Source of the DNA: Candidatus Kaiserbacteria bacterium CG10_big_fil_rev_8_21_14_0_10_47_16
GTDB lineage: Bacteria; Patescibacteriota; Minisyncoccia; Phycocordibacterales; UBA918
Direction of reading: 5' to 3'
DNA length: 64,000 nt
NCBI GenBank assembly: GCA_002773395.1
Contig: PFBI01000006.1
Coordinates: forward strand, 156,657-220,656
In this document: in pieces, positions 2,274 to 47,223 of the stretch
Layout: each line of letters starts with the position of its first letter
Numbering within the stretch: position 1 is the first letter of the stretch
Position numbers and translations under genes: made by a program
The notes under the pieces: generated by a model
What the model was told of the DNA's origin: nothing
Database searches by the model: none
Seen by the model: the letters and a program-made list of their open reading frames with translations, nothing else

Positions 2274-5551
<3,278 letters not shown>

Positions 5552-5651: not shown

Positions 5652-7151
5652 ATGGCAAAGAAAGCAACCCCACAACCGCATATTACGAAGCGCCCACCCG
5701 TAGTAGTTATCATGGGACACATCGATCACGGCAAATCGACGCTCCTTGACTACATCCGTAAATCAAACGTCGTAGCAGGCGAAGCAGGCGGTATTACCCA
5801 ACACCTCTCAGCCTACGTTGTAGAGCACACCCCAAAGGAAGGTGAGCCTGAAACCATCACATTCCTCGATACCCCAGGACATGAAGCATTCCAAAAGATG
5901 CGTCTTCGTGGTGCCGACGTCGCCGATATCGCAATTCTCATTGTATCTGCAGAAGATGGCGTAAAGCCGCAAACACTCGAAGCCCTCGAGAGTATCAAGC
6001 AAGCAGAGATTCCATATGTCGTTGCAATAAATAAAATCGACCTCCCGAATGCAAACCTCGTCCGTACCCAATCATCACTCATCGAAAACGAAATCTATAT
6101 TGAAGGTATGGGTGGTGATATCCCATGGGTTGCCCTCTCTGCAAAGAGCGGTGAAGGCGTAGACGAGCTTCTCGATCTTGTGCTCCTCTCTGCAGAACTC
6201 GCAGAGCTGAAGGGCGATACCAATGCACCTGCAGAAGGTACCGTCATTGAAGGGCACCTCGATACCAAGCGCGGAACAACTGCAACACTCATCATTAAAA
6301 ACGGAACATTGAAGTCTGGTTCGTTTGCAGTTTCTGGAAAAACATTTGCACCAGTGCGCATCATGGAGAATTTCCTCGGAAAGACCATCAAAGAAGCAAG
6401 CCTCTCAGAACCAATCGGAATCGTAGGATGGAACGAAGTCCCTGAAGTGGGTGCATCTTTTTATACTGTAGGATCAAAGAAGGAAGCTGAAGTCGTTATT
6501 GCGGAAGCGTTGCTTAAAGAAACGATCCCTACACCAACACGATCAAGCCTTCCTACTATCCCACTCCTCATCAAGGCAGACGTGCTCGGTACACTCGACG
6601 CTATTGAACACGAACTCGATAAATTTACATCGGACCGAATCGCGGTACGTATTATTGATTCCGGTGTCGGTGACGTCACAGCGAGCGACGTACAAAACGT
6701 AAGCGCGACGAAGGATGCCATTATTGTTGGATTCAACGTAAAGATTGAACGCGCTGCGCAAGATCTTGCAGAACGACTCGGTGTTGAGATTGATACATTT
6801 GATATTATTTACGAACTTTCTGAGTGGCTCAACACCGCACTCAAGAATCGAACTCCAAAGCAAGAAGAGGAGCAAGTGACCGGACGCGCAAAAATCCTCA
6901 AGCACTTCAGTAGTCAAAAGAATGCTCACGTACTCGGTGGTCGTGCTGAAGAAGGAAGTCTCTCACGTGGACAACATGTACGTATACTCCGTCGTGATCT
7001 AGAAATTGGTCGAGGTGTCCTCAAGAACCTCCAGCAGCAGAAGTCTGACGTCCCTAAGGTGGAGACAGGAGAGTTTGGTATGCAGCTTGATTCACGAACT
7101 GAAGTTGCTGCCGGTGATTATATCGAGGCCTATACGACGGTTGTAACCTAA
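5652..7151 (+). CDS. infB: translation initiation factor IF-2 (short form lacking the N-terminal domains)
   Basis: G-domain motifs GHIDHGKST, DTPGH, NKID, followed by the beta-barrel and C-terminal domains. Only 499 aa. Confidence 0.85.
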   Translation: MAKKATPQPHITKRPPVVVIMGHIDHGKSTLLDYIRKSNVVAGEAGGITQHLSAYVVEHTPKEGEPETITFLDTPGHEAFQKMRLRGADVADIAILIVSAEDGVKPQTLEALESIKQAEIPYVVAINKIDLPNANLVRTQSSLIENEIYIEGMGGDIPWVALSAKSGEGVDELLDLVLLSAELAELKGDTNAPAEGTVIEGHLDTKRGTTATLIIKNGTLKSGSFAVSGKTFAPVRIMENFLGKTIKEASLSEPIGIVGWNEVPEVGASFYTVGSKKEAEVVIAEALLKETIPTPTRSSLPTIPLLIKADVLGTLDAIEHELDKFTSDRIAVRIIDSGVGDVTASDVQNVSATKDAIIVGFNVKIERAAQDLAERLGVEIDTFDIIYELSEWLNTALKNRTPKQEEEQVTGRAKILKHFSSQKNAHVLGGRAEEGSLSRGQHVRILRRDLEIGRGVLKNLQQQKSDVPKVETGEFGMQLDSRTEVAAGDYIEAYTTVVT

Positions 7152-7549: not shown

Positions 7550-7741
7550 GTGCGCGGGAGAGGACTTGATTCTTACAGAATCTGTTCAGGCTGCACCACA
7601 AGAGTACTTTGATTTTCTAAAACGCAAGCGTTAAGAAAATCTGGTCGTATGATATTTTTCATACCTCAAAATATCGACAACCTTTTCAAGTCCTCTCCAT
7701 ACAAAGAAACACCAGAGAGACTCTGGTGTTTCTTTACTTTG

Positions 7742-7823
7742 TGCGCGGGAGAGGACTTGAACCTCCACGGATTACTCCACCAGTTCCTAAGACTGGCGCG
7801 GCTACCAATTACGCCACCCGCGC
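7742..7823 (-). tRNA. tRNA-Leu (anticodon TAG), type II with long variable arm
   Basis: Manual cloverleaf on the reverse complement: acceptor GCGCGGG/CCCGCGC, anticodon loop CTTAGGA, long variable arm, T-loop TTCAAGT. Confidence 0.8.
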
Positions 7824-8009
7824 ATATTTGTGACCGGTGCAGAATATCATGATATGCGAGTATCGTCACGGGTTTTGTGTATGTCATCACGAGTCACTAA
7901 GTCGCTACGCTCATAAGTGCTGGCGATCCCGCCTCGTCTGTGGCAAAGCCGCATGACTCCGGCTCGGACAAGCTAAAATCCTGACGCAGGTCAGGATTTT
8001 AAACGCTTG

Positions 8010-8082
8010 TCCGCCCACTAGGACTCGAACCTAGGACCGTCTCGTTAAGAGCGAGCTGCTCTACCAACTGAGCTATGGGCGG
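8010..8082 (-). tRNA. tRNA-Lys (anticodon CTT)
   Basis: Reverse complement folds as CCGCCCA-TA-GCTC AGTTGGTA GAGC-A-GCTCG CTCTTAA CGAGA...CTAGG TTCGAGT CCTAG TGGGCGG A. Confidence 0.8.
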
Positions 8083-8221
8083 GACTGTACCATTGTGACT
8101 GCACTGTGCAGTCTGAGGAGTGCTCTTAATGTTAAGAGCGGTAGATGAGTCTAGTAGACTCATCTACCTCCACCACCTCCGCTATGGGCGGATGTAGGTC
8201 AGAGTGTACTAAATTACACCA

Positions 8222-8305
8222 CCGAAAACAAGCTATATAGTGTGTCTGGGGCGGGGATCGAACCCGCACGGTCTTGCGACCACGAAATTTTAAGTCTCGC
8301 GCGGC
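8222..8305 (-). tRNA. tRNA-Leu (anticodon TAA), type II
   Basis: Reverse complement: acceptor GTCTGGG/CCCAGAC, anticodon loop CTTAAAA, long variable arm TGGTCGCAAGACCGT, T-loop TTCGATC. Confidence 0.8.
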
Positions 8306-8397
8306 TACCAATTACGCCACCCAGACATGCCGAGCATCATATCATATTTCACTTGGTTATGACTCCAATGGATGATAAAGTAATCCTTGTCACAAAC

Positions 8398-8469
8398 GGC
8401 CAGGTGGCGAAGTGGTAACGCTTCGGTTTGCAAAACCGACATGCACGGGTTCGAACCCCGTCCTGGCCT
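8398..8469 (+). tRNA. tRNA-Cys (anticodon GCA)
   Basis: GGCCAGG-TG-GCG AAGTGGTAA CGC-T-TCGGT TTGCAAA ACCGA...ACGGG TTCGAAC CCCGT CCTGGCC T. CCA is not encoded. Confidence 0.8.
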
Positions 8470-8535
8470 CAAACGAAACGGAGTGAAGTGCAGAGGTCAG
8501 GACAAAAGCGACAACAGTCGCTTTTGTTGAGGTTC

Positions 8536-8682: not shown

Positions 8683-9729
8683 TTATCTTTTTATTGAAAG
8701 CCGATTCTTTTTGAATTGCTCTAATTTCTTCTTATGATTGTTCTTAATCAAACGCTTTTTTACAACCTGTGGAAGTGCATCAAACGTCATACATGTGTAT
8801 GAACAATACCCTTTCTTCTTTTCGATACATGCGGAACATCCGATAAACAAGACGTGGCACGCCTGATTTTTGCAGTGGTGATGCGTATCACACTTCTCCT
8901 TCTTGCAAAGATGGCACGTTGCAATAATGTCATTCCCTATCCGTTCCCCAAGTCGCTCATCGAAAACAAAGTTTTTCCCGAGAAACTTATTTGACAATCC
9001 TTCCCGCTGTACTTGGTGCGCGTAGTCGATGATTCCGCCGCGGAGGTGCCGTACGTTTTCAAATCCATTATGCTTCAGCCACGCACTTGCCTTCTCGCAT
9101 CGTATCCCGCCAGTACAATACAGTGCAATCTTTTTATTTTTATGAATCCTGAGTAACTCTGGAGCAATACTGAGTTCCTCACGGAAAGTGTCCACATCAG
9201 GAGTAATCGCATTCTCAAAATGTCCGATCTCGCTTTCGTACGCATTACGCATATCGACAACGACTGCATCAGGATCTTCAATATACGCATTCATCTCACG
9301 AGCGGTGAGATAGTCGCCCGTGTTTGTCACATCAAACGAACGGTCGTCGAGTCCATCAGCCACGATCTTATTTCGGACTTTGATAGTGAGTTTATAGAAC
9401 GAAATAATATCCGCCTCTTCCACTGCAATCTTATAGGGCATGCCGCGGAGTTCTGGGCGGGATTGTACAAACGCATCAAACTGATCCCAGTGCTCAGTTG
9501 GTACGTTCATTTGGGCGTTAATGCCTTCGTGCGCCACATAAATACGCCCCAAGCAGCCAAGTGCCTCGAACCGCTCATAAAGCTCGTCTCGAAACGCTAC
9601 AGGGTCTGCAATGTGTACATACCGGTAAAACGAGAGTGTGGTACGAGAAATAGCTTCACGAATGGCTCGCTCTTTTCGTTCTTTCCGAGAAAGAAACCGT
9701 TGTGGGTTATGATCTATTTTTATATCCAT
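8683..9729 (-). CDS. trhO: rhodanese-domain tRNA uridine(34) hydroxylase (YceA/UPF0176 family)
   Basis: Rhodanese active-site Cys in CTGGIRCEKASAWL plus a C-terminal Cys-rich tail. I place the start at MDIKIDHNP (ATG 9727-9729) rather than the track's 9777. Confidence 0.7.
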   Translation of the reverse strand: MDIKIDHNPQRFLSRKERKERAIREAISRTTLSFYRYVHIADPVAFRDELYERFEALGCLGRIYVAHEGINAQMNVPTEHWDQFDAFVQSRPELRGMPYKIAVEEADIISFYKLTIKVRNKIVADGLDDRSFDVTNTGDYLTAREMNAYIEDPDAVVVDMRNAYESEIGHFENAITPDVDTFREELSIAPELLRIHKNKKIALYCTGGIRCEKASAWLKHNGFENVRHLRGGIIDYAHQVQREGLSNKFLGKNFVFDERLGERIGNDIIATCHLCKKEKCDTHHHCKNQACHVLFIGCSACIEKKKGYCSYTCMTFDALPQVVKKRLIKNNHKKKLEQFKKNRLSIKR

Positions 9730-9812
9730 TCTTCTGTGACAGCCATCATACCGCACAGCGGTACTTGTGCAACACAAAACGGCCCTTGCGGGCCGTTTTG
9801 TGTTCTAGCTCT

Positions 9813-10115
9813 TTAGAGTGATTGTTGTGAACCACTAATCGGTATACCGAAGGTTCCAGCTGCAATCATGAGAATGGTATATGCCGAAACCATGATGAGT
9901 AGACCGATAACACCGTAGAGCATATGCTGCCGCCCTTTACTCTGCGCGCCGTCATTACCAGCATTGGCAATGAATTCAAATGCGCCCCACAGAAAAACGA
10001 GTAGTGCGACCGCGAGCATGAGTGTCATGAGCGGAAACAATATAACGTCGTTTATTTTTGCAAGGATCGACTGTGCAGCGGCTGTTGCCGATGCACTGTC
10101 AGCATACGCGATCAT
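9813..10115 (-). CDS. TrbC/VirB2-like T4SS-pilin-family small membrane protein (paralog 1)
   Basis: 100 aa; two hydrophobic helices separated by a short basic loop (...FLWGAFEFIANAGNDGAQSKGRQHMLYGVIGLLIMV...). Same architecture as the ORFs at 10122, 13185 and 13496. Confidence 0.55.
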   Translation of the reverse strand: MIAYADSASATAAAQSILAKINDVILFPLMTLMLAVALLVFLWGAFEFIANAGNDGAQSKGRQHMLYGVIGLLIMVSAYTILMIAAGTFGIPISGSQQSL

Positions 10116-10121
10116 AGGCGT

Positions 10122-10499
10122 TTAGTTGTTCGTGAGGTTTACGTTTGGAATACCTTGGATGTCTTGTTGGTTAAGACCGAGACCAGATGAGAGAAGGTTT
10201 ACAATTCCCCATACTGATACCATGATCACGAAACCTGCAATACCCCAAATCATGTAATCGCGTCCTTTTTCTTTTGCTGTTTCAGAATCACGTGAAAAGA
10301 TAAAGTATGTTGCAACTCCCCAAATGAAGAGAAGGAATGCAATTGCGAAGATGAGCGGTACAAGCGTGAAGTTAATGAAGGTTACAATGTTTGTAAAAAA
10401 CACCGTTACTCCATTAAAGTTTCCTGGGCTTGTCTGCGCAAACGCAGCTACCGCTGGGAAAAAACTGGCGAATGGAAGGGCTCGAGCTAAAAATTTCAT
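10122..10499 (-). CDS. TrbC/VirB2-like T4SS-pilin-family small membrane protein (paralog 2, with signal peptide)
   Basis: 125 aa; signal peptide MKFLARALPFASFFPAVAAFAQ, then TM1, loop SRDSETAKEKGRDYMIWG, TM2. Lies 6 nt upstream of paralog 1. Confidence 0.55.
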   Translation of the reverse strand: MKFLARALPFASFFPAVAAFAQTSPGNFNGVTVFFTNIVTFINFTLVPLIFAIAFLLFIWGVATYFIFSRDSETAKEKGRDYMIWGIAGFVIMVSVWGIVNLLSSGLGLNQQDIQGIPNVNLTNN

Positions 10500-10762
10500 A
10501 TATCGTTACAATTATTAATTAACTTCCTCTAATTATAGCTAAATTAGGCCTTTACAGTATAGCATCTGTGGATTACGGCCTTCCTCTTTCGGATATACGC
10601 CGTATATTGACTTTTTGACATATAAATGCTATAATATATACAGAGTCGGGGGTGGGTGAATCCACAAAAATTCCCCACTTCTCCTACATCATCAACCATT
10701 CGGACGCGGTAATAACCGCGCTCTGCGCGGTTCCCCGTCCTTTGACAAGAGGTACAAAGATC

Positions 10763-12049
10763 ATGGACACGTTCACAGATGTTCTCTCGTTTATCGTCAC
10801 TTTGCTGACGATACTCGTCGCAATACCGATCGGGGTATTTATACCCCTGTTTCTCTTCCCACTCATTCCGGGTGCGGTTGCATCGTTGGCAAACAACCCC
10901 AACAGGTTCCAACCGGAGAAAAACCCTAGTGTGCGTAATTACGAACCGAGCACATTCGGGTTCTTCACCACTCTGGCACCTGGCCAAGTGAAGCTCATCG
11001 AGCGCGGCAAGCGATTCATCGGCGGCATTATGCGGTTCGAAGGTCACAGCTTCGCTGGAGAGCAAGACAAAAAACTTGCTCGAAACACTCATGGGTATTG
11101 GGAGGTTACGAAAACAAATGGGGACGGAGAAGACACCCACCCCATTCCCAAGCCGAGCTGGGAAAAAGCCAAAAAAGACGGTGTGATTGGGGTCTTGCTT
11201 TACCCAGTCAAATGGATTTGGTGGAAATGGAAACGTTGGGTATACGAACTCACTGGGTACGTATTCACTGGCTTCTATCCGTTCCAACAGGTCCGCGTGG
11301 AAACGATCGACCGATACAAAAAAATCAAGCATGCTGATGGTTCTGAAGAAATCGTGTACATTGCCGACTATACAGACCATTTCCGTGTTGCCGATTTTCA
11401 GTTTCCGGTCATCATTCCGGATGCTGACACCCAAGACAAGATCCCGGTCAGAATGATCGTGGATACTGTTATGCGGTGTTTCAATCCGTACCTTGCCGCA
11501 TATGCAACAGATGACTGGTCGTCACGATCTACTACTTCAATAGGAGATGCGGTGACTCACTATACGCGGCCACGCAAACTTGACGTCGTCCTTTCAGCCG
11601 AAAGCACTGGTGACGTTCGCAAGATGGGAGAGGAAATATCCCAAATCGGTAATCGAACAATCCCAGAAGAGACTCAGACACCAAACAACATCGTCGCTTT
11701 CGGCTTCGAGGTTCGCCAGGTTCTGATACCTGACATATCTCTGGCAAACAAAGCTGATGCCAGACGACTGGGCGATGTTGCATTTGCCCGAGTTGACCGT
11801 GACGCCCAAGTGATACGTTCCGAGGGCACTGCCCAAGGTATCGCCTTACAAGCAAAGGCGGTCACCGAAGGTGGGGCTGCCGGCATGGCGGTACTCCTCT
11901 CAGAGCGGAATATAAAAACCGCAGATGTTGCGGGAGATAAGGCCATCGTGGTCATAGGTGGTGGGGCAGATCCTTTTGCAGCTGCCACATTCAAGGAGAT
12001 CAAGCAAATCAACGACAATACCAAGGGGACCAGTGATGGAAATACCTAG
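10763..12049 (+). CDS. SPFH/band-7 (stomatin/flotillin-like) domain membrane protein
   Basis: N-terminal TM (FIVTLLTILVAIPIGVFIPLFLF), then LAPGQVKLIERGKRFIG (SPFH start) and C-terminal ...VLIPDISLANKADARRLGDVAFARVDRDAQVIRSEGTAQGIALQAKA (the Ala/Glu-rich SPFH helix). Start taken at ATG 10763, downstream of an extended -10 box tgctataat at about 10623-10631. Confidence 0.5.
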   Translation: MDTFTDVLSFIVTLLTILVAIPIGVFIPLFLFPLIPGAVASLANNPNRFQPEKNPSVRNYEPSTFGFFTTLAPGQVKLIERGKRFIGGIMRFEGHSFAGEQDKKLARNTHGYWEVTKTNGDGEDTHPIPKPSWEKAKKDGVIGVLLYPVKWIWWKWKRWVYELTGYVFTGFYPFQQVRVETIDRYKKIKHADGSEEIVYIADYTDHFRVADFQFPVIIPDADTQDKIPVRMIVDTVMRCFNPYLAAYATDDWSSRSTTSIGDAVTHYTRPRKLDVVLSAESTGDVRKMGEEISQIGNRTIPEETQTPNNIVAFGFEVRQVLIPDISLANKADARRLGDVAFARVDRDAQVIRSEGTAQGIALQAKAVTEGGAAGMAVLLSERNIKTADVAGDKAIVVIGGGADPFAAATFKEIKQINDNTKGTSDGNT

Positions 12050-13112
12050 TATATCTGTCCCTATCTTCTTGTGGACGATAGGGGTGGTAGCAGCGCTCAT
12101 TGCTGCTGCCATAATCTTCTTCCTCTCATGGGGAGCACGTCAAGGGAGAAAGGCTGTGGAGAAACCTCAGAAAGAGAAGGATTCGGCAACCGAGTCTACA
12201 AAAGAAGTCAGCGAACCCGTCAACAAGAAGAAGGCTGGCAGCAGATGGGAGAAATTGAGGGTTCCTCGAAAGTATCTGATCTTTTTCCCGATTGTGCTGC
12301 TCTTCATCCTTCTGACAATATGGGGAGTAACCAGTCTCTTCGGCAGTTCCGACAAGGAAACAACAACCGCTTCCAACGTCGTCGCAGAAGAAACCACGAG
12401 TCCTCCAGCAGTGTCACCAAGTGAACCGAAAGCACCTACGGTGCAAAAAGAACACAAGGTGACACCGCAGGCGGCCCCAACAAGTACGGACGATGGAAAG
12501 GGGTGGCCACTGCTTCTTGCTGCGGTATTGTTTGCGGCAGGTATTTGGCTCATCAGCCTTGGAGCAAGGGCCAGAACACTATTCGGCTTCCTCCTCTGCA
12601 TTCCTCTTCTCTGGCTATCTTTACCCCTCGTTGGTATATCCTTCGATTCATGGGGTGGAATAACTCGCTGGGGAGGTCTTGGCCTACTCGCCTTACTCGG
12701 TGGGTTCATGGCTTGGAAATCCAACTCATGGATCGTGCGAGTGATTGGAGGCATTCTTGTATTGCCGATAATCATCGCCGCGCTATCCGGACCATCCGCT
12801 GGTGACCGTTTCGCCGACAACCTCGGCAAGACTGTCATTGACGCAAGTGATGGCGTCGGCGAAAAACTCGGCGGGCTTACGAGTGGTGAAGGGTCGACAA
12901 CTGGCACCATCAAGCTCAAGGGCGAGATAACGACAGTCTGGCTCGACGGCCATTGGCGCAATATGCCAATTCCTTCGGGCACCTGCACGCTCACGAGCCC
13001 TGGGAGTCTCATTGAATTTGAGTTCCCAAACCAAACTCTGACACGCATGCGTAGTCAGAGTGGTGAAAAGATCCAGGCGACGGTCACCATGAAGCCTTAC
13101 GGCACGTGTTGA
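12036..13112 (+). CDS. polytopic membrane protein (about 6 TM helices, S/T/P-rich loop, about 100-aa C-terminal soluble domain), function unknown
   Basis: ATG at 12036 overlaps the upstream stop by 14 nt, which suggests translational coupling. Multiple hydrophobic segments. Confidence 0.5.
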   Translation: MEIPSISVPIFLWTIGVVAALIAAAIIFFLSWGARQGRKAVEKPQKEKDSATESTKEVSEPVNKKKAGSRWEKLRVPRKYLIFFPIVLLFILLTIWGVTSLFGSSDKETTTASNVVAEETTSPPAVSPSEPKAPTVQKEHKVTPQAAPTSTDDGKGWPLLLAAVLFAAGIWLISLGARARTLFGFLLCIPLLWLSLPLVGISFDSWGGITRWGGLGLLALLGGFMAWKSNSWIVRVIGGILVLPIIIAALSGPSAGDRFADNLGKTVIDASDGVGEKLGGLTSGEGSTTGTIKLKGEITTVWLDGHWRNMPIPSGTCTLTSPGSLIEFEFPNQTLTRMRSQSGEKIQATVTMKPYGTC

Positions 13113-13184
13113 TCAGAGCCTTTGTACCTCTTGAATACAAACTGGACCCCCGCTGCTTCGGCAGTGTGTGGGTCCTTTTTCTTT

Positions 13185-13499
13185 TTATATACCAAATATT
13201 CCGCCGCGAAGAAGCGCGATGATCCCCCAAATACCAACCATGACCACGAGTACGAGTACTCCTGTTGTGATGATTTTCTTTCCTTTTTCAACTTGCGCTT
13301 CCTCTGCCCCACCAATTACCCATGTTCGAATGATTGCCCATACGAGTACGATGAAAGTGAGAGCGAAAATGAACGTAATCAACAAATTTATGATACTGAG
13401 GAAGAGATCCACAAGTGAACCGAAACTCTTTGGTGTTGCAACAGCTGCAGACGTCAGCATCGGTGTCATTACTATGAGAAGTGAGAGGAAGTATTTCAT
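13185..13499 (-). CDS. TrbC/VirB2-like T4SS-pilin-family small membrane protein (paralog 3)
   Basis: 104 aa: signal peptide, TM1, loop GGAEEAQVEKGKKI, TM2. Confidence 0.55.
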   Translation of the reverse strand: MKYFLSLLIVMTPMLTSAAVATPKSFGSLVDLFLSIINLLITFIFALTFIVLVWAIIRTWVIGGAEEAQVEKGKKIITTGVLVLVVMVGIWGIIALLRGGIFGI

Positions 13500-13954
13500 T
13501 TTGTAATTGCCGTAATAGTACCTTGTATAACTTCAAGGATTGCCCATGCGCCGAGTACAATGACGCCGCCAATAACCGCCCACGTAAGGGCTGCACGCGC
13601 TTTCTGGATTTGTGCTGGTTCACCACGTGCTGTTACAAAGAGGAATCCTGCGTACATGATAAAGAGCACGATAATAGGTATTGCAAAGACGAGAATAATC
13701 GCAATGACCGACTTGAGGAAATCAGTGAGATTGTAGTTTTCGCTTGAACTGAGTGGATTGGTAAGTTTTACTGTACCTCCTGAACCAGACCCAGGGTTTG
13801 CACCCGAAGGTACATTATCAGTTGGATTTGAACCTGAAGGAACTGAGTTACCCGAGTTGGAACCAGATGGAACAGTGTCCGCTGCAAATACCACCCCCTG
13901 TACAGGCACTATCATCATTGTAGTTACTACCGCTCCGATAAAAAAGTTTTTCAT
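13496..13954 (-). CDS. TrbC/VirB2-like T4SS-pilin-family small membrane protein (paralog 4, with N-terminal VPSGSN repeats)
   Basis: Start taken at MKNFFIG (ATG 13952-13954), 8 nt after the SBP gene stop. Repeats VPSGSNSGNSVPSGSNPTDNVPSGANP, then TM1, loop TARGEPAQIQKARAALTW, TM2. ATGA overlap with paralog 3. Confidence 0.55.
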   Translation of the reverse strand: MKNFFIGAVVTTMMIVPVQGVVFAADTVPSGSNSGNSVPSGSNPTDNVPSGANPGSGSGGTVKLTNPLSSSENYNLTDFLKSVIAIILVFAIPIIVLFIMYAGFLFVTARGEPAQIQKARAALTWAVIGGVIVLGAWAILEVIQGTITAITK

Positions 13955-13961
13955 AGTCTCA

Positions 13962-15266
13962 TTAAAATAATTGTTGCAATCTTCCAACTGCGTCTGTTAT
14001 CGATTCGCTCACTCGCTTGCGGCCACTCGTTACATCTTCGATCATCGTCTTAAAGACATTCTCACTGCCGAGCGCACTTGGGTCAAGCCACGCATGTGCA
14101 GTGAGTGCGGCGCGGTACAACACTTGTCTGTACGCACTCCCTGTTCCTAAAGCAATTTCAGCACGGACAACTGGTGCGAGGTTGAGTGCTTCGGTGAGCA
14201 TCAATGCGTTTGGCTGACTTGCAAGGACTTGTGCGGCTGCAAATCCGCCCTGCGGATTTGCAGCCGCACTTGGAATCGCAAACGCATAGAACGTACCAAA
14301 GTCACGCACCACATTTGCTCCCGCTCCTTGTGGCACCTGCGCAATATCGAAGTTTAAGTTTGGATTCGCACTTTGGAGTTCTTTGTATTCACTTCCCTTT
14401 CCAAAGTAGAGTGCAAGATCTTCTGAGAGGAATGCTTGCCGATCTTCCCTAAGCGAACGGTTCCATGAGTATGTCGTCCCCGAACTTTGTGAAAACTGCG
14501 TATAGAAAGAGAGTGCCGCCTGTCCTGGGGGAATATTATTGTTTGCTGATTTCCCAAGCGTAATCTCAATCCCTTGTGCGCCCGTTGAGACGATGTCTGT
14601 CCCCGCTTGCATAAAGAGCATCGAGAGAATGCTTTTTGCGTTTCTGATATTACTGTATTCACCGAGACCAACAGCGCTCTGGATAATCTCACGATTTGCA
14701 GCAACCTTGGTAACCGCAGGTGTCGTAACATTTACAAGCTCTTCCCATGTCGCCGGTGGCTGTGCTATCCCATTCTTCGCAAGGAGGTCGCGGTTCCAGT
14801 ACATGACGAGCGGATCCACCGCAAACGGAATTCCGTAGACGCCATCATTAAGCAAGAAGATGTCCGCACCATCAATATAAGAGTCTCTGAAGGTTCTCTC
14901 AGGGATTGTGGTAAACGATATTTTACTAAGTCGGTTTTGGTAGGTAAGTAAATCTTCACTTGAGAGGACGACGAGGTCTGGAGAACGCCCTGCCGCGATG
15001 GCGTTGAGTAATTCATAATCAAAAGTGTCTTTGTTTTTTTGTATGTAGTGCACTGCTTGAAACGCACTGTCACCACGACTGATTTCGTCGAGTACAACAC
15101 TGAACGCAGAAGCTGAGAATGTTCCCCACACCTCTACCGATTCCCCGTACAGTTGGCTCGTGCTTGAGCTCGATCCTCGAAACGTAATAAAAAAGATGAG
15201 CGCAACAATCGCGAGAAAACCGAACCCTCCTAAAAGAATGATTTGAAATGGTCGTATTGATGTCAT
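13962..15266 (-). CDS. extracellular solute-binding protein (ABC transporter substrate-binding, family 1 sugar-type)
   Basis: 434 aa, N-terminal TM anchor; overall composition and length of a periplasmic-binding-protein fold. Assignment rests on general resemblance, not a specific motif. Confidence 0.6.
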   Translation of the reverse strand: MTSIRPFQIILLGGFGFLAIVALIFFITFRGSSSSTSQLYGESVEVWGTFSASAFSVVLDEISRGDSAFQAVHYIQKNKDTFDYELLNAIAAGRSPDLVVLSSEDLLTYQNRLSKISFTTIPERTFRDSYIDGADIFLLNDGVYGIPFAVDPLVMYWNRDLLAKNGIAQPPATWEELVNVTTPAVTKVAANREIIQSAVGLGEYSNIRNAKSILSMLFMQAGTDIVSTGAQGIEITLGKSANNNIPPGQAALSFYTQFSQSSGTTYSWNRSLREDRQAFLSEDLALYFGKGSEYKELQSANPNLNFDIAQVPQGAGANVVRDFGTFYAFAIPSAAANPQGGFAAAQVLASQPNALMLTEALNLAPVVRAEIALGTGSAYRQVLYRAALTAHAWLDPSALGSENVFKTMIEDVTSGRKRVSESITDAVGRLQQLF

Positions 15267-15817
15267 ACGCGTCTAAACATTAATCCATAATGATGCTCCC
15301 CTGCAGGAAAGTCGTGTTCAAGACGAAATCCATGTGCTTCTGCCATACTCGTTACTGCTTTTTGATCAACGACATGATCCGGTCGTGGGCCAAGTCCTCC
15401 AAAGCTTTCTGTCCACTCGATGATAGCGAGCTTTCCGCCTGGGCGGATCACACGTGCAGCTTCAGTGAGTGCAACGCCTTTATCATCAACTTGGAAGAGC
15501 GTGTTGATGAATACCCCCATATCAAGCGTATTATCGGCAAGTCGAACTCCTTTTGGAGTTTCGAGATCGCACCACAGTGGCTCAACATTCGGGAGTCGTT
15601 CTGTCTGCGCTACTAGGGCGAGTGTTTCAACAAGATTCTTCTGGATCTCACACGCATACACGCGACCATCGAGACCTGCCGCGGTTGAGAGCGCACGGAG
15701 AAAGTATCCCGATCCCGCACCAAAGTCTGCCACACGGTCTCCCGGCCGCAGATGAAAGTGCGAAGTTACAACATCGGGTTTTACAAACCGAGAACCGCCT
15801 TCTGAATTCATGCACAT
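15263..15817 (-). CDS. class I SAM-dependent methyltransferase
   Basis: Motif I VADFGAGSGYF and a post-I acidic residue. Start placed at the ATG 15815-17, which has GGAG nine nt upstream, because the gyrA terminator hairpin abuts the longer ORF start. Confidence 0.65.
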   Translation of the reverse strand: MCMNSEGGSRFVKPDVVTSHFHLRPGDRVADFGAGSGYFLRALSTAAGLDGRVYACEIQKNLVETLALVAQTERLPNVEPLWCDLETPKGVRLADNTLDMGVFINTLFQVDDKGVALTEAARVIRPGGKLAIIEWTESFGGLGPRPDHVVDQKAVTSMAEAHGFRLEHDFPAGEHHYGLMFRRV

Positions 15818-15857
15818 AGTATAGCACTCCGTATAGTTAATAGCGGGCACCAAGACG

Positions 15858-15900
15858 TGGAAAGGCCCGAGAGATGCTTCGCATCTCTCGGGCCTTTCCT
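15858..15900 (-). terminator. rho-independent terminator downstream of gyrA (19-bp stem)
   Basis: ggaaaggcccgagagatgc-ttc-gcatctctcgggcctttcc. Confidence 0.7.
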
Positions 15901-15919
15901 ACCCCACATTTCAACAATC

Positions 15920-25869: not shown

Positions 25870-26607
25870 CTACGCGCGGATTTTCCACCCGATCTTAAAG
25901 AGGTATGTCACGAGTGCTGCGAGACCTACAAGCAGACCCCCAATAACGAGTAGTCCAACCCCCGGATTTGCTTCACTCACACCAATCATTGAACTACGGA
26001 TACCATCCACAAAATAGAAGAACGGATTGATGTGTGTCAGAAGCTGTGCAGATTGCGGAAGCATCGTCACTGAATAGAAGATACCGCCGAGATACGTAAA
26101 CGGGGTGATGATAAAGGTATTGAGAATAGTAAGTTGTTCAAAGCCGTCTGCCCACAATGCCACCAACATACCAAGCAGTGAAAAGATTCCAGAAACGGCA
26201 ATCACGTACAGTACAAATCCAATAGGATTAACGAGCGTCACTGCGCCGAAGAAGAGTCCGACAACGAGAATAAGGAACGCAACAATAAGTGCTCGAAGGA
26301 CTGCACCGAACATATATCCAAAAATCATTTCCACATACGAGAACGGTGCGAGAAGAATTTCTTCAATACCTTTTACAAAGCGTGCGAAGTAAAGTGATGA
26401 AGAACTACTCGAGAATGACGCATTGATAATACTGAGCATCAAAATACCCGGAAACACGAACGTGATGTACGGAACCCCTACAATATTTTCAATACGTGAA
26501 CCAACCACAAACCCGAAGATGAATATGTATAGTGTCGCCGAAATAACCGGTGCGAGTACCGTCTGTACAACAACGCGCATCGTTCGTTCAACTTCACGTC
26601 GTACCAT
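25870..26607 (-). CDS. ABC-2 family transporter permease
   Basis: 6 TM segments. Start taken at MVRREVERTM (ATG 26605-07), because the longer ORF N-terminus overlaps a 17-bp inverted-repeat element. Confidence 0.65.
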   Translation of the reverse strand: MVRREVERTMRVVVQTVLAPVISATLYIFIFGFVVGSRIENIVGVPYITFVFPGILMLSIINASFSSSSSSLYFARFVKGIEEILLAPFSYVEMIFGYMFGAVLRALIVAFLILVVGLFFGAVTLVNPIGFVLYVIAVSGIFSLLGMLVALWADGFEQLTILNTFIITPFTYLGGIFYSVTMLPQSAQLLTHINPFFYFVDGIRSSMIGVSEANPGVGLLVIGGLLVGLAALVTYLFKIGWKIRA

Positions 26608-26629
26608 CGTATAGACTCCTATCCAGTTT

Positions 26630-26728
26630 ACCCCGTTAGAAATTATTGAGCGGTTTCTTTTGTTTTCAATATTTTGTGTGTTGTTCATACTTATGTACAT
26701 TGACGCTTTTGATAATTTCTAACGGGGT
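26630..26728. repeat. MITE-like element: perfect 17-bp terminal inverted repeats (accccgttagaaattat / ataatttctaacggggt) enclosing 65 nt, between the ABC ATPase and permease genes
   Basis: Arms at 26630-26646 and 26712-26728 are exact reverse complements. The arms resemble those of the element at 59900-60022. Confidence 0.45.
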
Positions 26729-26741
26729 TAATTCCCATACG

Positions 26742-27485
26742 CTAAAATGTTTCTCCTTTAGTAATTTCTAAATACCGTTGTTCAAGCGACTTTCCACCTG
26801 CAATAAACTCATTTTTTGTCCCTTCTGCAATAATCTTTCCATTGTTAATGATAGCAATGTCATTACAAAGCATCTCAATCTCTTCAAGATAGTGTGACGT
26901 CAAAATGATAGTCTTGCCTCGCTGCTCATTGAGCTCACGGAGATACGCCCAGAGTTCATGACGCTGCTCTACATCCACTCCTGCCGTTGGTTCATCAAGG
27001 ATAAGGAGATCTGGCGCATGCACGAGTCCGCGCGCAAGCATGACACGACGCTTCAATCCTCCTGAGAGGTGCTGAAACTTTTTGTTGCGGTGTGCTTCTA
27101 AATCAAAGCGTGCAATGAGTTCATCAATGCGAGATTGCCGTTCACGCTTCGGCATACCGTAGTAGCCACCAACATAATCGAGGAGCTGATCAGGTGTTGA
27201 GAAGATATCTACATTGAACTCCTGTGGTGAGAGACCGACTTTTTTACGGGCAGTCTTGTACTCTTTCACTACATCAGTACCATCAATCATAATTGAACCG
27301 CTTGTTATCTTTGCAATTCCGGTAATGCAGTGAATCGTACTTGATTTCCCTGCACCATTTGGACCAAGTAAACCAAAAAATGCACCCCGTGGGATACGGA
27401 GTGAAAGGTCTGCGACCGCGGTCTTATCGCCATACTTCTTTACAAGGTGATCGATCACCAAAATATCATCTGTTGCCTTTTGCAT
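26742..27485 (-). CDS. ABC transporter ATP-binding protein
   Basis: Walker A GPNGAGKSST, signature LSGGLKRR, Walker B LLILDEP. Confidence 0.85.
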   Translation of the reverse strand: MQKATDDILVIDHLVKKYGDKTAVADLSLRIPRGAFFGLLGPNGAGKSSTIHCITGIAKITSGSIMIDGTDVVKEYKTARKKVGLSPQEFNVDIFSTPDQLLDYVGGYYGMPKRERQSRIDELIARFDLEAHRNKKFQHLSGGLKRRVMLARGLVHAPDLLILDEPTAGVDVEQRHELWAYLRELNEQRGKTIILTSHYLEEIEMLCNDIAIINNGKIIAEGTKNEFIAGGKSLEQRYLEITKGETF

Positions 27486-40000: not shown

Positions 40001-41389
40001 CTAAGATGCAATTGGAAGATTCGGTGGTGCTTCGCTTCGTGTTGACGGAATACGACCGACAGTCGGTGTGGTAACGACCTTGCCTGGAATATGGAATATT
40101 GTCGCAAGCTCCTCTGTCGTCATTATTTTCTTTCCATCCTTCGCTCCTCGCTGGGAGTATGACCGAAGTTTATACTCACGAAGCTCATCCTTCTTCCACG
40201 CCTGCTTCTTGCGACCACTCGGATCTTGCCACCAGTTCCAGTCATAGTCAGTGCGCCACCGCACGCCAAGCGCGTTGCGATTAATGTCGTCATATCCACG
40301 CCACGAAGTAATGAGCGAACCAATACGCTCCCCTGGCGTATACGCTTCGTTGGTCGCAATGTACATACCTCGAATAGCCACGTTAAACGCGTTCTTACCA
40401 AGACTTCGCTCCACTGCCTTAATAGTGTCTTTTTCGGTATCGGTAAGCTGCTGCATCACATTGCCTCCCGCATTTTCACCTGCACGCTTCTGAGCATCTG
40501 CAATCATCTTTTGAATAAAGGCATTCGCGGCAGGCTTCCAGTCTGATTGCTTCGTAAGCGACCCTTCCTTGAAACCGACATCTCGGTTTGCATCGATGAG
40601 AATCTGCGCCCAAAAATATTCGCCAGGACCAATCGCAGCAAACGGCTCGAGCATAGTGGTGATTGGATCAATTTTTTCTTCTTCCTTCGGCATAGTGTGC
40701 ATGCCGTATTCAATATATGTTTTGAGCGGCAATGCATCATCTTTCTTAAGATTGAAGTGGAGTGAGAAGTAGCTAAATCGACTCGGGTCCCACGGAATTT
40801 CTGACGTGTAATCCACATCAAGTTCAATCATTTCAACACCCGGATACTGCGAATAGAAACCTGCCTCTGCAATATTCTTAAATTTCTTCCGTGGGACATT
40901 AATATAGAAACGTACATCGCCACCTCGTGAAACAATTTCAAGACTGGTGACCGGAGGATGTTTTCCGTCCCAATACGTCTGGATATGGTTGTCCGGTGCA
41001 GCCGTTTGGTGGAGCTGATTGAGAATAAGCTCCATTACTTCTGGTGATTTAAATACTTCCTGCGGAATACGAATTTCGAGCGTAACTCTCCCCTGCTTCA
41101 GGTCAAACTCTCGTCGCACAAATTCAAGCCAGTACTCATAAAAAAGACCGAATGTAATGACGGGAAGCCATACTGGTGACGTAATGAGTATGATCTTTAC
41201 GGTCGCACTCGAAGATACATCGAGTGTAAAAAAAGCTGCACCGATCGCAATAATACCCAGCACCACCAATATGATGCCGCCGTTTGCTCCGAGATCCTCT
41301 AGTTTACTGAGCATGTGTACACATTGTATCGTAAAATCCCCGTGGATGCGCAAAAACGTCGGGAATAACGACACCTGACCTTTGCGCAC
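40001..41389 (-). CDS. hypothetical membrane protein (N-terminal TM pair, about 380-aa soluble domain), unknown family
   Basis: 462 aa; no recognizable catalytic motif and no Walker A; stop lies 1 nt before the mltG start. Confidence 0.45.
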   Translation of the reverse strand: MRKGQVSLFPTFLRIHGDFTIQCVHMLSKLEDLGANGGIILVVLGIIAIGAAFFTLDVSSSATVKIILITSPVWLPVITFGLFYEYWLEFVRREFDLKQGRVTLEIRIPQEVFKSPEVMELILNQLHQTAAPDNHIQTYWDGKHPPVTSLEIVSRGGDVRFYINVPRKKFKNIAEAGFYSQYPGVEMIELDVDYTSEIPWDPSRFSYFSLHFNLKKDDALPLKTYIEYGMHTMPKEEEKIDPITTMLEPFAAIGPGEYFWAQILIDANRDVGFKEGSLTKQSDWKPAANAFIQKMIADAQKRAGENAGGNVMQQLTDTEKDTIKAVERSLGKNAFNVAIRGMYIATNEAYTPGERIGSLITSWRGYDDINRNALGVRWRTDYDWNWWQDPSGRKKQAWKKDELREYKLRSYSQRGAKDGKKIMTTEELATIFHIPGKVVTTPTVGRIPSTRSEAPPNLPIAS

Positions 41390-41432: not shown

Positions 41433-42458
41433 TTACTCCAATACAATGTATGACCCGTCAGGGAGACGCTTGAACAGCGCTGGATCCTGTAGATTGACCA
41501 CAATCGTATTGTCCTTTACATATCGTTCTTTCCGAACCTTATCGATGATTTCTTCACGCGTCAGTGGACCGTGTTTCTGAAGAATATCCTGAAGCACATC
41601 CTTTACCACTCCTGCTGAGTATCCCCATTCTGTGAGCGCGTAGAGTCCGCGTCCAACAAGGACGAAGCGCTCATCTTTAATAAGTTCATTGTGCGTTGTC
41701 GCAGTATGCGCCTTCTTATCAAAGAGTTCGCCAATTGCTCCTGCAACTTCCTTAAAGTGCATTGGTGAACCGTGTCGCTTTACCGCGAGGTATGCATAAT
41801 CACGAATTCCCTTTGCACGCACATTTGGACTCTGGGCAGGTCCCCATTCACCGAGCGGATTGCATCCAATGTTCTTTGAAAGACGGAGCCAACGACGAAG
41901 CACTTCTTCTTTTCGGTATCGCTCTTCTACATCACCAAGTTCTTTTTGGAGACGTGCGATAATTTCATCTTCTGGCACAAGTTCATCTTCAGAGAGTGAA
42001 GAAAATACTTTTTCAAGTGCTCGTTCTACGGTATTAGAAACTTTCTGTTCGATATACCACCGATGATGGAATTCGTTGTTTTCTTTATTTCGGTAAAATG
42101 GACTACCGAGTACGAGAAGGAAATAGAGATGATTACGGGTTACTTCGTCTTTCGCAAGTTCTGAGAGGAGGTCTTCCTCAGAAACAACGGCACCGAGGCC
42201 ATCAATCGCAGCACGCATTTCATCAAACACCACCTGGAACTCATCGTAGGCTGGTGACTTCTGAATTGACTGGATAGCGTAGTTCTCAATCTGACGAACA
42301 CGCTCACGGGTGATCCCGTATGTCTGCCCAATTGATTCAAGGGTCTGCGCCTTTGTGTTCTTGCCGAGTCCGTAGCGCTTTTCAAGCACATCACGAGCAC
42401 GGTCAGGAAGCACTGCAAGCAGCTTCTTTGTGACCTGTTTTGGTGCAAATGTAACCAT
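41433..42458 (-). CDS. DNA-binding regulator: sigma-70 region-4-like HTH followed by two HARE-HTH domains
   Basis: LPDRARDVLEKRYGL...TLESIGQTYGITRERVRQIENYAIQSI (sigma region 4). Two HARE-HTH units (...HGSPMHFKEVAGAIGEL... and ...HGPLTREEIIDKV...). GGAGG RBS 14 nt upstream of the ATG at 42456-58. Confidence 0.55.
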   Translation of the reverse strand: MVTFAPKQVTKKLLAVLPDRARDVLEKRYGLGKNTKAQTLESIGQTYGITRERVRQIENYAIQSIQKSPAYDEFQVVFDEMRAAIDGLGAVVSEEDLLSELAKDEVTRNHLYFLLVLGSPFYRNKENNEFHHRWYIEQKVSNTVERALEKVFSSLSEDELVPEDEIIARLQKELGDVEERYRKEEVLRRWLRLSKNIGCNPLGEWGPAQSPNVRAKGIRDYAYLAVKRHGSPMHFKEVAGAIGELFDKKAHTATTHNELIKDERFVLVGRGLYALTEWGYSAGVVKDVLQDILQKHGPLTREEIIDKVRKERYVKDNTIVVNLQDPALFKRLPDGSYIVLE

Positions 42459-42590
42459 ATTTATTAATATTATTTCCTCCTGTAATACATCGATTTCCGA
42501 GAAAATCAACTATTGATAGATCTATTTTTATCACGCCTTTCAAGATAAGTCAAGGCATCCAGATACCTCCCTCCCCGTATGTAGCGGTAG

Positions 42591-45635: not shown

Positions 45636-45836
45636 TAGTACGATTTGAGCGTCGTCGAGCTTGGAGAAACAATGAGCTATGATAATAGCGATTATGTTTC
45701 TCCAGTCGTCGAGCCAAAAGAAATTAAGGAAATGCCAATGGCATTGACTATAATTTCTCTGTGCCAGACCTTTTGAATTTTTGACAAATTCCCTGTCAAA
45801 AATTCAAAAGCAAATCGTACCTTAGTACGATTTGAG
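45636..45836. repeat. ~173-bp insert at the extreme 3' end of rpoD, flanked by a 14-nt direct repeat (tagtacgatttgag at 45636-45649 and 45823-45836) that contains the rpoD K-S-Y-stop codons
   Basis: The interior has two copies of gtcgtcgagc, an inverted repeat ggagaaaca/tgtttctcc, and a perfect 17-bp palindrome cttttgaatttttgaca-aattccc-tgtcaaaaattcaaaag (45773-45813). Confidence 0.45.
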
Positions 45837-47168
45837 ACGTCTGGCCTTCTCGTGTTGCCGAATCTTCTCGAGGGCTTTTGCCTCAATCTGACGAATACGC
45901 TCTCGCGTTACACCGAACTCTTTCCCTACCTCTTCGAGTGTATGGTAAGTACCATCAATGAGTCCGTGACGCATTTCAAGAATCTTCCGCTCCTTCTCTG
46001 ACAATGTGTCGAGAATTTCCTGCATCTGATCCGCAAGAATACGGTGTGCAACTTCTTGGTCTGGAGAGATGATTTTGTCGTCTGAGATAAAGTCAGAGAG
46101 ACGTGAACGATCATCATCGTCAGCTCCCACCGGCAGCTCGAGTGAGATGGTATCCTGACTAATCTTTTCAATTTGGTAAATCTTTTCTACTTCAACGTTC
46201 ATTTCAGTTGCGATCTCTTCTGGCATTGGATCACGCCCAAGATCTTGTGCTAACCGTCGTGACACCTGCTTGTACTTCGCCATTGTTTCCACCATGTGCA
46301 CCGGAATACGAATCGTACGCGATTGGTCAGCGAGCGCTCGGGTAATTGCCTGACGAATCCACCATGTTGCATAGGTCGAGAACTTGAATCCCTTTTCATG
46401 ATCAAATTTATCAACAGCCTTAAAGAGACCGAGGTTCCCTTCCTGAATAAGGTCGAGGAGTGTTAAGTCGGGAGACCGACCAACATACTTCTTTGCAATC
46501 GAAACCACGAGACGGAGGTTTGCGCGCGCAAGCAAGTTGCGAGCCTCTTCATCCTCCTCAATAATACGCTTCGCAAGATCTCGCTCTTCCTGTGCTGAGA
46601 GGAGTGGGTACTGTCCAATTTCTCGGAGGTACATTTGAATAGAGTCGTGTCCGTTATCAGAACGTTTGTAGACGTTGCGCTTATCGTGCAACATGTCGCT
46701 CACGTCATCCCCAAGCATTCCTCCGCTTTCAAGAATATCAACACTTGCCGTCGCGAGACGTTCGTAGAGATCTTCAAGAAATGGTACGTCGCGCTCAATC
46801 TGTGGAAACGCTTTGAGAATTTCGTCGTATGTGACATATCCACGATCACGCCCTGCTTGCAGGAGCTGCTGCGCTTTACTTTCGTTTTCTTTTTCGAGCT
46901 TTGTGCGTTTCTTCGGCTTCGCAGGTACGACGCGCTTTGCCGCTTTCTTTGCAGTTTTCTTAGGTGCTGTCTTCTTTACTGGCTTCTTGGTAGCTTTCTT
47001 CACTACCTTCTGAGTCTTCTTTTTGGCTACTTTTTTAGTAGTTTTCTTCGTTGTTTTTTTGGCAGTTGTGTTTTTAGCTTTCTTTGAAGCCACTTTTTTT
47101 GTTGCCTTTTTTACGGTTTTTTTGACCGCTTTTTTTACTACTTTTTTTGTTGCCTTTTTGGCAGCCAT
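45822..47168 (-). CDS. rpoD: RNA polymerase sigma-70 factor with about 100-aa lysine/alanine-rich (AKK-repeat) N-terminal extension
   Basis: Regions 2-4 (...[18 protein letters not shown]..., ...[24 protein letters not shown]...). N-terminus [21 protein letters not shown].... Confidence 0.9.
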
Positions 47169-47223
47169 AGTGAAGCCCACTATACCTTACACCAGAGAAA
47201 AGTCCAGAGCCCCGAGGATTCTC

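Follow-up and report, generated by a model that had tools for sequence, protein, structure and literature searches.

Tandem arrays of small pilin genes related to VirB2 have been described in Patescibacteria. Quinonero-Coronel et al. found VirB4 in 80% of Patescibacteria assemblies and VirB2-like pilins in 1,948 assemblies that contain VirB4; the pilins lie close to virB4 in 1,135 of these and away from it in ∼40% of pilin-bearing assemblies. They listed 441 arrays of 2 to 11 divergent pilin genes (mean identity 25%) in 383 Patescibacteria assemblies, with relaxases generally lacking (PMC12102498). For Southlakia epibionticum, Wang et al. reported an essential series of predicted pilins inside a type IV secretion system (T4SS) cluster (PMC10633639); in the tables of that paper SEML1_0014-0019 are PF18895 proteins forming a six-gene array, and the SPFH gene SEML1_0609 lies far away. 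In a speculation put forward in a 2025 review, uptake from the host proceeds through the pilus as a conduit (PMC12857230). Here we analyze four VirB2-like genes (herein pilA, pilB, pilC, and pilD) that lie on both sides of an SPFH-like gene and a membrane-protein gene (herein the partner) within 64,000 nucleotides (nt) of a Candidatus Kaiserbacteria/Parcubacteria genome (herein the window). They add a further member to the VirB2-like pilin arrays described from Patescibacteria, with an operon context that is conserved and had not been described before: the three papers make, and literature text searches returned, no mention of a link to a solute-binding protein (SBP) and a methyltransferase (MT), of a position beside gyrA, of fixed D-C-B-A orthology, or of an SPFH neighbor. 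A first-pass annotation of the window had suggested a lineage-specific system of pilin-like subunits and an SPFH scaffold; arrays of 2 to 11 PF18895 genes being already described in Patescibacteria (PMC12102498, PMC10633639), novelty in that sense is not supported.

The genes of the locus, with the lengths of their products in amino acids (aa), are as follows.

9813-10115, minus strand: pilA, VirB2-like two-helix protein, 100 aa, without signal peptide; last gene of the ancestral array
10122-10499, minus strand: pilB, VirB2-like pilin, 125 aa, signal peptide; the type that is duplicated in larger arrays
10763-12049, plus strand: SPFH-like protein (divergent SPFH/band-7 fold), 428 aa
12036-13112, plus strand: partner membrane protein, 358 aa, translationally coupled to the SPFH-like gene
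13185-13499, minus strand: pilC, VirB2-like paralog, 104 aa, signal peptide; no Pfam match of its own
13496-13954, minus strand: pilD, VirB2-like paralog, 152 aa, signal peptide; overlaps pilC by 4 nt
13962-15266, minus strand: SBP, membrane-anchored family-1 solute-binding protein, 434 aa
15263-15811, minus strand: MT, class I S-adenosylmethionine methyltransferase, 182 aa; overlaps the SBP gene by 4 nt

The four small genes, the SPFH-like gene, the membrane-protein gene, and the SBP gene lie where the first-pass annotation had placed them, as does the 14-nt overlap between the SPFH-like and partner genes (12036-12049). Its 384-aa partner corresponds to a real open reading frame (ORF), the longest one, with a GTG start at 11958, but public gene calls give 358 or 342 aa. 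The 428-aa SPFH-like protein is 100% identical to GW943_01015 of a Candidatus Parcubacteria bacterium metagenome-assembled genome (MAG).

Like SEML1_0014-0019 and the other Patescibacterial arrays, the four genes encode small two-helix hairpins of the PF18895 family, mostly with signal peptides; they are tandem divergent paralogs (25 to 38% identity here, against the published mean of 25%), chromosomal, without a relaxase, and in a monoderm host. Unlike SEML1_0014-0019, they lie outside a T4SS cluster (no VirB4, VirB6, or PrgI within ∼74 kb). They further differ from the published arrays in being co-operonic with MT and an anchored SBP beside gyrA, in having a fixed D-C-B-A order with 1:1 orthologues, and, in the window's species, in being split into two transcription units. 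We put at roughly 60% the probability that the locus comprises two separate envelope modules, ancestral neighbors in this Paceibacteria branch (Kaiserbacteria/Nomurabacteria-like Parcubacteria), that were interleaved by a block interchange.

Gene order in relatives carries this reading. Loci anchored on the SPFH gene were drawn from genomes and metagenomes, giving 11 distinct genomes with enough flanking sequence, and seven more genomes were sampled through SBP homologues at 45 to 53% identity (the relatives' loci are labeled L001, L002, and so on). All 11 SPFH-anchored genomes have the arrangement IF2-rbfA-[four tRNAs]-rhodanese (minus strand), then SPFH-partner (plus strand) converging on pilA-pilB-pilC-pilD-SBP-MT (minus strand), then gyrA, sometimes with a fifth pilin before gyrA. 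The seven SBP-anchored genomes all read gyrA-MT-SBP followed by four to six pilins. Wherever the array is fully visible in another genome (17 of 17), the pilin order D-C-B(-B')-A is invariant and contiguous, with MT-SBP upstream; in L004 the contig ends after pilA, and the rest of the array is out of view. Orthologues of pilA occur 1:1 in all relatives, at 49 to 81% identity. The pattern is far beyond chance: at least 18 other genomes match each of the paralogs 1:1, with their order preserved.

Compared with these relatives, the blocks [SPFH-partner] and [pilA-pilB] have traded places in the window, each keeping its orientation. The split order is confined to the window's species, where it is found on eight independent contigs from at least four samples (JGI and Logan assemblies), and to the sister species represented by L032, whose identity to the window is 80% for rhodanese and pilB, 67% for SBP, 48% for SPFH, and 23% for the partner. 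The eight contigs and L032 rule out an assembly artifact as the cause of the split. By parsimony, the contiguous array is ancestral and the split is derived, through a block interchange. The "divergent cluster around an SPFH protein" of the first-pass annotation is thus a derived rearrangement, since the array is contiguous in the other genomes, where the SPFH-partner pair merely converges on its end; an organization of the pilins around an SPFH scaffold is not supported. As for co-occurrence, an SPFH-like gene and partner are syntenic with the pilins in 11 of 11 SPFH-anchored and converge on the array in 5 of 7 SBP-anchored genomes, but not in L026, which has six pilins and no SPFH cassette, nor in L024, where the slot holds four unrelated membrane genes. 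Judged from these gene orders, the cassette is a frequent but dispensable, fast-evolving neighbor within a generally syntenic backbone.

Some variants of the array and slot were recorded along the way. A fifth, longer pilin paralog lies between MT and gyrA, on the minus strand, in several relatives: L001 (11856-12188), L002 (11623-12030), L003 (11847-12191), and L011 (12564-12890). Its counterpart in the window is a 108-nt gap at 15812-15919, which contains the gyrA hairpin (15859-15899). The L024 slot (11001-13087, minus strand) holds genes of 178, 261, 109, and 139 aa, none with a Pfam match, and the last of them resembles the SPFH partners in its N-terminal transmembrane (TM) helix and in a C-terminal domain that contains Cys. 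L008 has an extra 404-aa ORF between the partner gene and pilA (2362-3576, plus strand).

The first-pass annotation had also read insertion scars beside the tRNA array. Four tRNA genes (Leu-TAG, Lys-CTT, Leu-TAA, and Cys-GCA) stand at 7741-8470, between rbfA and rhodanese, and each of the eight relatives checked (L001-L004, L011, L024, L027, and L028) has the same four in this position, which speaks against such scars. The order and strand of the single tRNA genes vary from genome to genome. From these comparisons the cluster is a place where small local rearrangements are frequent, rather than a site of insertion. An integrated element at the tRNA cluster was rejected: the tRNAs and the backbone are the same in all relatives, there is no integrase or relaxase, and the GC content is unremarkable.

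The small proteins belong to the VirB2-like pilin family, an assignment that, from profile and sequence comparisons, is solid when the family is taken as a whole. Against the PF18895 (T4SS_pilin) gathering threshold of 26.6 bits, pilB scores 33.1, pilD 30.0, and pilA 26.6, exactly at the cut-off. The first-pass expectation that the small proteins would match pilin profiles is thus borne out for three of the four, but pilC has no match and none of the four reaches the 27.9-bit threshold of PF04956 (TrbC/VirB2), for which pilB gives a weak 15.9 bits and the other three no match. pilC is tied to the family by BLASTP, in which it matches pilB and pilC orthologues at E 1e-9 to 1e-26. Among 30 family members (orthologues and paralogs), PF18895 is matched by 26 at E ≤ 0.01 (best 1.7e-14) and TrbC/VirB2 by 8 at the same limit (best 2.5e-7). 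All NCBIfam matches, to a Mycoplasma integrative and conjugative element pilin-like family, are below cut-off.

The VirB2/TrbC architecture noted at first pass is present throughout: hydropathy and alignment give every paralog two hydrophobic helices flanking a short charged loop. Signal peptides are found in pilB, pilC, and pilD, and in neither pilA nor any of its orthologues. Pairwise identity among the four is 25 to 38%. The reported VPSGSN repeats are also real: pilD has three copies in a low-complexity stretch, together with a conserved L-x-N-P-L motif ahead of helix 1. No DNA tandem repeat was found beneath VPSGSN, so the repeat exists at the peptide level alone. With classical TrbC/VirB2 and TraA pilins (PF04956) the proteins share two helices, a short charged loop, Sec-type leaders, and weak cross-family similarity; they differ in scoring below the PF04956 threshold and in having no VirB5, cyclase, or peptidase partner.

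Upstream of the pilins, the SBP matches SBP_bac_8 (PF13416) at 62.8 bits and has more than 2,500 homologues. It contains no Cys and is therefore not a lipoprotein. In all 17 other genomes showing both genes it lies directly upstream of pilD, with a gap of 0 to 33 nt or an overlap, and MT is upstream of SBP in all relatives, with the 4-nt overlap in the window. From this conservation, MT-SBP-pilD-pilC-pilB-pilA is the universal, tightly coupled unit of the locus. No importer permease (BPD_transp) or importer ATPase was found among the window's proteins, whose sole ATP-binding cassette (ABC) pair (25870-27485) is of the ABC-2 exporter type, and none adjoins the SBP in any of the seven SBP-anchored relatives. 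The membrane-anchored SBP probably acts with the pilin structure, not with an ABC importer. MT is preceded by an extended -10-like TGCTATACT a few nucleotides before its ATG, a spacing that suggests a leaderless or near-leaderless mRNA.

The first-pass annotation had set the locus apart from a conjugation apparatus and had seen no VirB4 or VirD4 nearby. Both points stand: none occurs among the large or unassigned ORFs of the window or in the 10 kb to its left, and no relaxase, coupling protein, or conjugation ATPase is nearby. Compared with Gram-negative T4SS loci, the host envelope here is monoderm and conjugation genes are absent.

The SPFH-like protein has no PF01145 (Band_7) match in Pfam at E ≤ 0.1; among its 42 detectable homologues 5 carry PF01145, and the slot counterparts in L025, L027, and L028 match it weakly. 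The subfamily is thus small (42 matches) next to that of the SBP (more than 2,500). Its identity as an SPFH protein is upheld by an AlphaFold monomer model built from a 31-sequence alignment (predicted local distance difference test, pLDDT, 87.4), for which Foldseek returns stomatin at E 1.5e-9 and HflK/C, prohibitin, erlin, flotillin, major vault protein, and QmcA-YbbJ at probability 1.0. The protein consists of a long N-terminal hydrophobic anchor, an SPFH domain, an inserted Trp-rich helix (WWxWKRWVY, nearly invariant among aligned homologues), and a long coiled coil. It shares the SPFH fold, the N-terminal anchor, and the long coiled coil with HflK/C-FtsH and QmcA-YbbJ (SPFH-NfeD; PDB: 8z5g), and differs from HflK/C and QmcA in lacking a Band_7 Pfam match and in carrying the Trp-rich hydrophobic helix within the SPFH domain.

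The partner comprises an N-terminal TM helix, a charged linker, an S/T/P-rich segment, approximately four more TM helices, and a C-terminal domain of ∼107 aa that carries a Cys pair. It has no Pfam or NCBIfam family (no match at E ≤ 0.1) and no homologue but itself in a search of 5.8 billion proteins; an exhaustive HMMER search of 1.84 billion representatives gave a single relative, with 38% identity across the 150 C-terminal residues. A single-sequence model is unreliable (pLDDT 51.5), with about six helices followed by β-strands. Every related SPFH gene is followed by an overlapping, abutting, or closely spaced membrane-protein gene of 159 to 409 aa. These positional partners have no alignable sequence in common and share a plan: an N-terminal TM helix, a variable linker, more TM helices (1 to 6 in total), and a C-terminal domain (∼110 to 130 aa, but 242 aa for L017) that mostly carries a Cys pair, one member of which sits at the extreme C terminus. 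The first-pass question of whether the partner is VirB6/TrbL-like is answered in the negative, there being no family match at E ≤ 0.1, a single homologue, and counterparts of 159 to 409 aa with 1 to 6 TM helices, where a VirB6/TrbL core requires at least five. Like the membrane protein of QmcA-YbbJ, the partner is encoded downstream and coupled, with an N-terminal TM region and a C-terminal domain that is β-rich in the low-confidence model; it differs from NfeD partners in having an S/T/P-rich exposed segment, a Cys pair, one detectable homologue, and no NfeD signature. No NfeD Pfam match occurs in the partner or in 10 slot counterparts, the C-terminal β-strands being seen just in that low-confidence model; an NfeD-like role is possible by analogy. 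The S/T/P-rich segment and the Cys pair suggest that the C-terminal domain is extracytoplasmic. The SPFH part of the locus is ordinary in kind and illustrates a fast-evolving envelope slot.

In the two-module reading, the first module would be MT-SBP-pilD-pilC-pilB-pilA downstream of gyrA, with four ancient, non-redundant PF18895 paralogs. Each pilin would enter the membrane as a helical hairpin, the charged loop facing the cytoplasm, and signal peptidase would process three of them. All four may combine into a heteromeric structure on the cell surface, pilus-like or a conduit, whose assembly would most probably fall to a monoderm-type T4SS on the chromosome; Patescibacteria usually encode this system at another site, near dnaA. 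The second module would be a bicistronic operon with a strong promoter, producing a divergent SPFH scaffold and, coupled to it, a polytopic partner that is exposed at the surface and evolves fast; in analogy to HflK/C-FtsH and QmcA-YbbJ, an SPFH ring may enclose or organize the partner in the membrane. The [SPFH-partner] and [pilA-pilB] blocks would then have swapped places without inversion. PF18895 arrays are essential for epibiotic growth in the sole Patescibacterium tested, and the form of array at the present locus, from a large environmental clade, lends itself more readily to interpretation. A string that joins the pilins to an anchored sugar-type SBP and an MT, away from T4SS genes, also supplies candidates for asking whether the "pilus" serves nutrient acquisition.

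Several observations weigh against this reading. The window's pilins score near the PF18895 threshold (26.6 to 33 bits against 26.6), with pilC below it and without a Pfam match, and a family profile run against PDB sequences returned no solved pilin, just light-harvesting and G-protein-coupled receptor helices at E > 0.1; with the NCBIfam matches all below cut-off, the small proteins might be generic two-TM membrane proteins that match pilin profiles through hydrophobic composition. This is very improbable, given the family-wide matches to PF18895 (26 of 30, to E 1.7e-14) and TrbC/VirB2 (8 of 30, to 2.5e-7), public precomputed annotations that name the same family in every genome, and an architecture, size, set of signal peptides, and tandem divergent paralogy that agree with published arrays. 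Assembly by a T4SS is opposed by the failure to find VirB4, VirD4, VirB6, or PrgI in the 64-kb window or the 10 kb to its left (∼74 kb), and by L001 (RIFOXYB1_FULL_46_14) and L003 (RIFCSPHIGHO2_01_FULL_46_22), draft MAGs that carry the pilin array and are listed with VirB4 "No" (PMC12102498, Table S1). No pilus is known to have been seen in this lineage. MT, the anchored SBP, and four fixed subunits of a co-opted VirB2 fold might then make up a surface conduit or capture device of their own, for host-derived (sugar-like) substrates. Such independence from a T4SS would suit the 0- to 33-nt gap or overlap between SBP and pilD in 17 of 17 genomes, the translational coupling of MT to SBP, the lack of an importer permease or ATPase beside the SBP in the window, and a string that is always by gyrA and not in a T4SS cluster. 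The constancy of the D-C-B-A set, orthologous 1:1 between genomes, favors separate structural roles in a heteromer over antigenic variation and fits here as well. We nevertheless consider a T4SS-independent apparatus unlikely. The sole experimental data on PF18895 arrays place them in an essential T4SS cluster (PMC10633639); VirB4 is present in 80% of Patescibacteria assemblies, and it is draft MAGs that were called negative, while a 628-kb Kaiserbacteria MAG in the same study, RIFOXYD1_FULL_47_14, likewise a draft, is listed as VirB4 "Yes" (PMC12102498, Table S1). VirB2-like proteins have no known precedent as transporter subunits.

A further point concerns the SPFH genes: the SPFH-partner adjacency outlasts SPFH divergence beyond recognition, which could signal a functional link. 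The first-pass annotation had favored one integrated system, in which a microdomain of SPFH ring and partner stores, protects, or organizes the pilins and selection keeps the genes together. That would account for the convergence of SPFH-partner on the array end in the 11 SPFH-anchored and 5 of the 7 SBP-anchored genomes, for an adjacency that survives near-undetectable SPFH similarity while the nearby tRNA genes shuffle, and for a cassette that is still inside the array after the rearrangement. However, synteny extends over the entire IF2-rbfA-tRNA-rhodanese...gyrA backbone, so that the adjacency can be explained without a shared function, and swapping two adjacent blocks keeps them adjacent of necessity. 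L026 keeps six pilins without the cassette, L024 has its four unrelated membrane genes in the slot, the two modules are convergently transcribed from separate promoters to separate terminators, and in S. epibionticum SEML1_0609 (SPFH) is far from pilins 0014-0019. We therefore hold a functional pilin-SPFH system to be doubtful and retain the reading of two separate modules.

The two blocks also appear to be self-contained in expression. The elements on which this rests are listed below.

9771-9804, minus strand: perfect 15-bp hairpin just downstream of pilA, a terminator-like end of pilB-pilA (z -5.6)
10532-10537, minus strand: TATAAT, a -10-like box ∼33 nt upstream of pilB, read from the sequence
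10607-10635, plus strand: predicted promoter of the SPFH-partner operon, TTGACT-17-TATAAT with TG (11/12 consensus matches)
13144-13187, both strands: intrinsic terminator, hairpin 13144-13175 and T-run (dG -24.4, z -3.5)

The same promoter, in the form TTGACTTTT...TGnTAtaAT, is found upstream of every SPFH gene of the slot. The hairpin at 13144-13175 ends the SPFH-partner transcript and, from the opposite side, the pilD-pilC transcript, in agreement with the shared terminator that the first-pass annotation had recognized between the converging units. The hairpin downstream of pilA is kept in L032 with compensatory changes. A GCTATAAT or GTTATAAT box stands ∼35 nt before pilB in the pilC-pilB gap of the relatives, and also in L032; we infer that the pilB box is an internal promoter that would make pilB-pilA an autonomous unit. 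That each block brings its own signals, a -10 box and hairpin for pilB-pilA and a promoter and terminator for SPFH-partner, is a plausible reason why the split is tolerated. The predicted transcription starts lie near 10525 (minus strand), 10642 (plus strand), and 15811 (minus strand). This natural split, in two species, marks pilB-pilA and MT-SBP-pilD-pilC as separable expression units. For rhodanese, a TATGAT box between the pilA hairpin and the rhodanese start codon is kept in the window and L032. A stem-loop occurs at the transcript start of every slot SPFH gene (10607-10700 in the window; L001-L030), its sequence varying and its structure kept, which suggests a stabilizing hairpin.

Pairing between 5' and 3' untranslated regions (UTRs) that masks a ribosome-binding site is known from the icaR mRNA of Staphylococcus aureus and from the fold-back element of hok. 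The SPFH-partner mRNA is bracketed by a complementarity of similar placement, with the following two arms around a Shine-Dalgarno (SD) sequence and its complement.

10746-10759, plus strand: 5' arm, CAAGAGGTACAAAG, containing the SPFH Shine-Dalgarno sequence; 14-nt perfect complementarity
13120-13133, plus strand: 3' arm (anti-SD), CTTTGTACCTCTTG, 8 nt past the partner stop codon; reverse complement of the 5' arm

The 14-bp duplex of the two arms (dG -20.5) spans the 2.4-kb bicistronic mRNA. Among the inverted repeats of the window whose arms start more than 200 nt apart, it alone is perfect over 14 nt or more, and such a repeat occurs in just 1.7% of random 3.8-kb sequences. In L032, TGCACCTCT, likewise 8 nt past the stop, pairs with that genome's own SD region AGAGGTGCA (arms at 2621-2629 and 4701-4709); the L032 match is 9 nt long and carries an A:T to G:C compensatory change relative to the window. 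L002 and L011, which have the ancestral order, place TGTTCCTTA just past the stop, where it pairs with a different SD region, TAAGGAACA/AAGGAA; the L002 arms are as follows.

5987-5995 and 8069-8077 of L002: the two arms of its complementarity

The anti-SD element is thus present in 4 of 13 related loci (the window, L032, L002, and L011), 2 to 8 nt past the partner stop. In those four genomes no more than one non-cognate pairing is as favorable in energy as the cognate duplex; this does not hold for the nine others. A search for matches of at least 9 nt turned up little in the relatives, which had suggested a rearrangement scar as the origin of the 14-nt repeat. That origin was rejected: L032, rearranged in the same way, retains no more than 9 nt, including the compensatory change, and L002 and L011, with the ancestral order, have an analogous complementarity of different sequence. 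The repeat may alternatively act at the DNA level, as an inversion site. From the comparison across genomes, it looks like a 3'-UTR anti-SD element that pairs with the 5' UTR, with possible control of expression. As in icaR and hok, the transcript carries just past its last stop codon an anti-SD complementary to the SD region of its own first gene; unlike them, the element described here spans a 2.4-kb bicistronic mRNA, occurs in 4 of 13 related loci, and is predicted from sequence.

No known RNA family was found within 9500-14200. A defense system was considered and set aside, PADLOC having returned nothing beyond a generic methyltransferase match. The rest of the window is housekeeping, including gatCA, ligA, IF2, rbfA, gyrA, gyrB, dnaG, ATP synthase, ClpB, and LeuRS. 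Six further ORFs have no Pfam family at E ≤ 0.001, and some of them have N-terminal hydrophobic segments.

40001-41389, minus strand: 462 aa
21782-22705, plus strand: 307 aa
56339-57088, minus strand: 249 aa
42628-43371, plus strand: 247 aa
36430-36972, minus strand: 180 aa
18495-18899, minus strand: 134 aa

The window also contains two sigma-70-related genes, at 41433-42509 and 45822-47180 (both minus strand). One encodes a full RpoD-like protein with a lysine/alanine-rich N terminus; the product of the other, 358 aa long, has just region 4 and a HARE-HTH domain.

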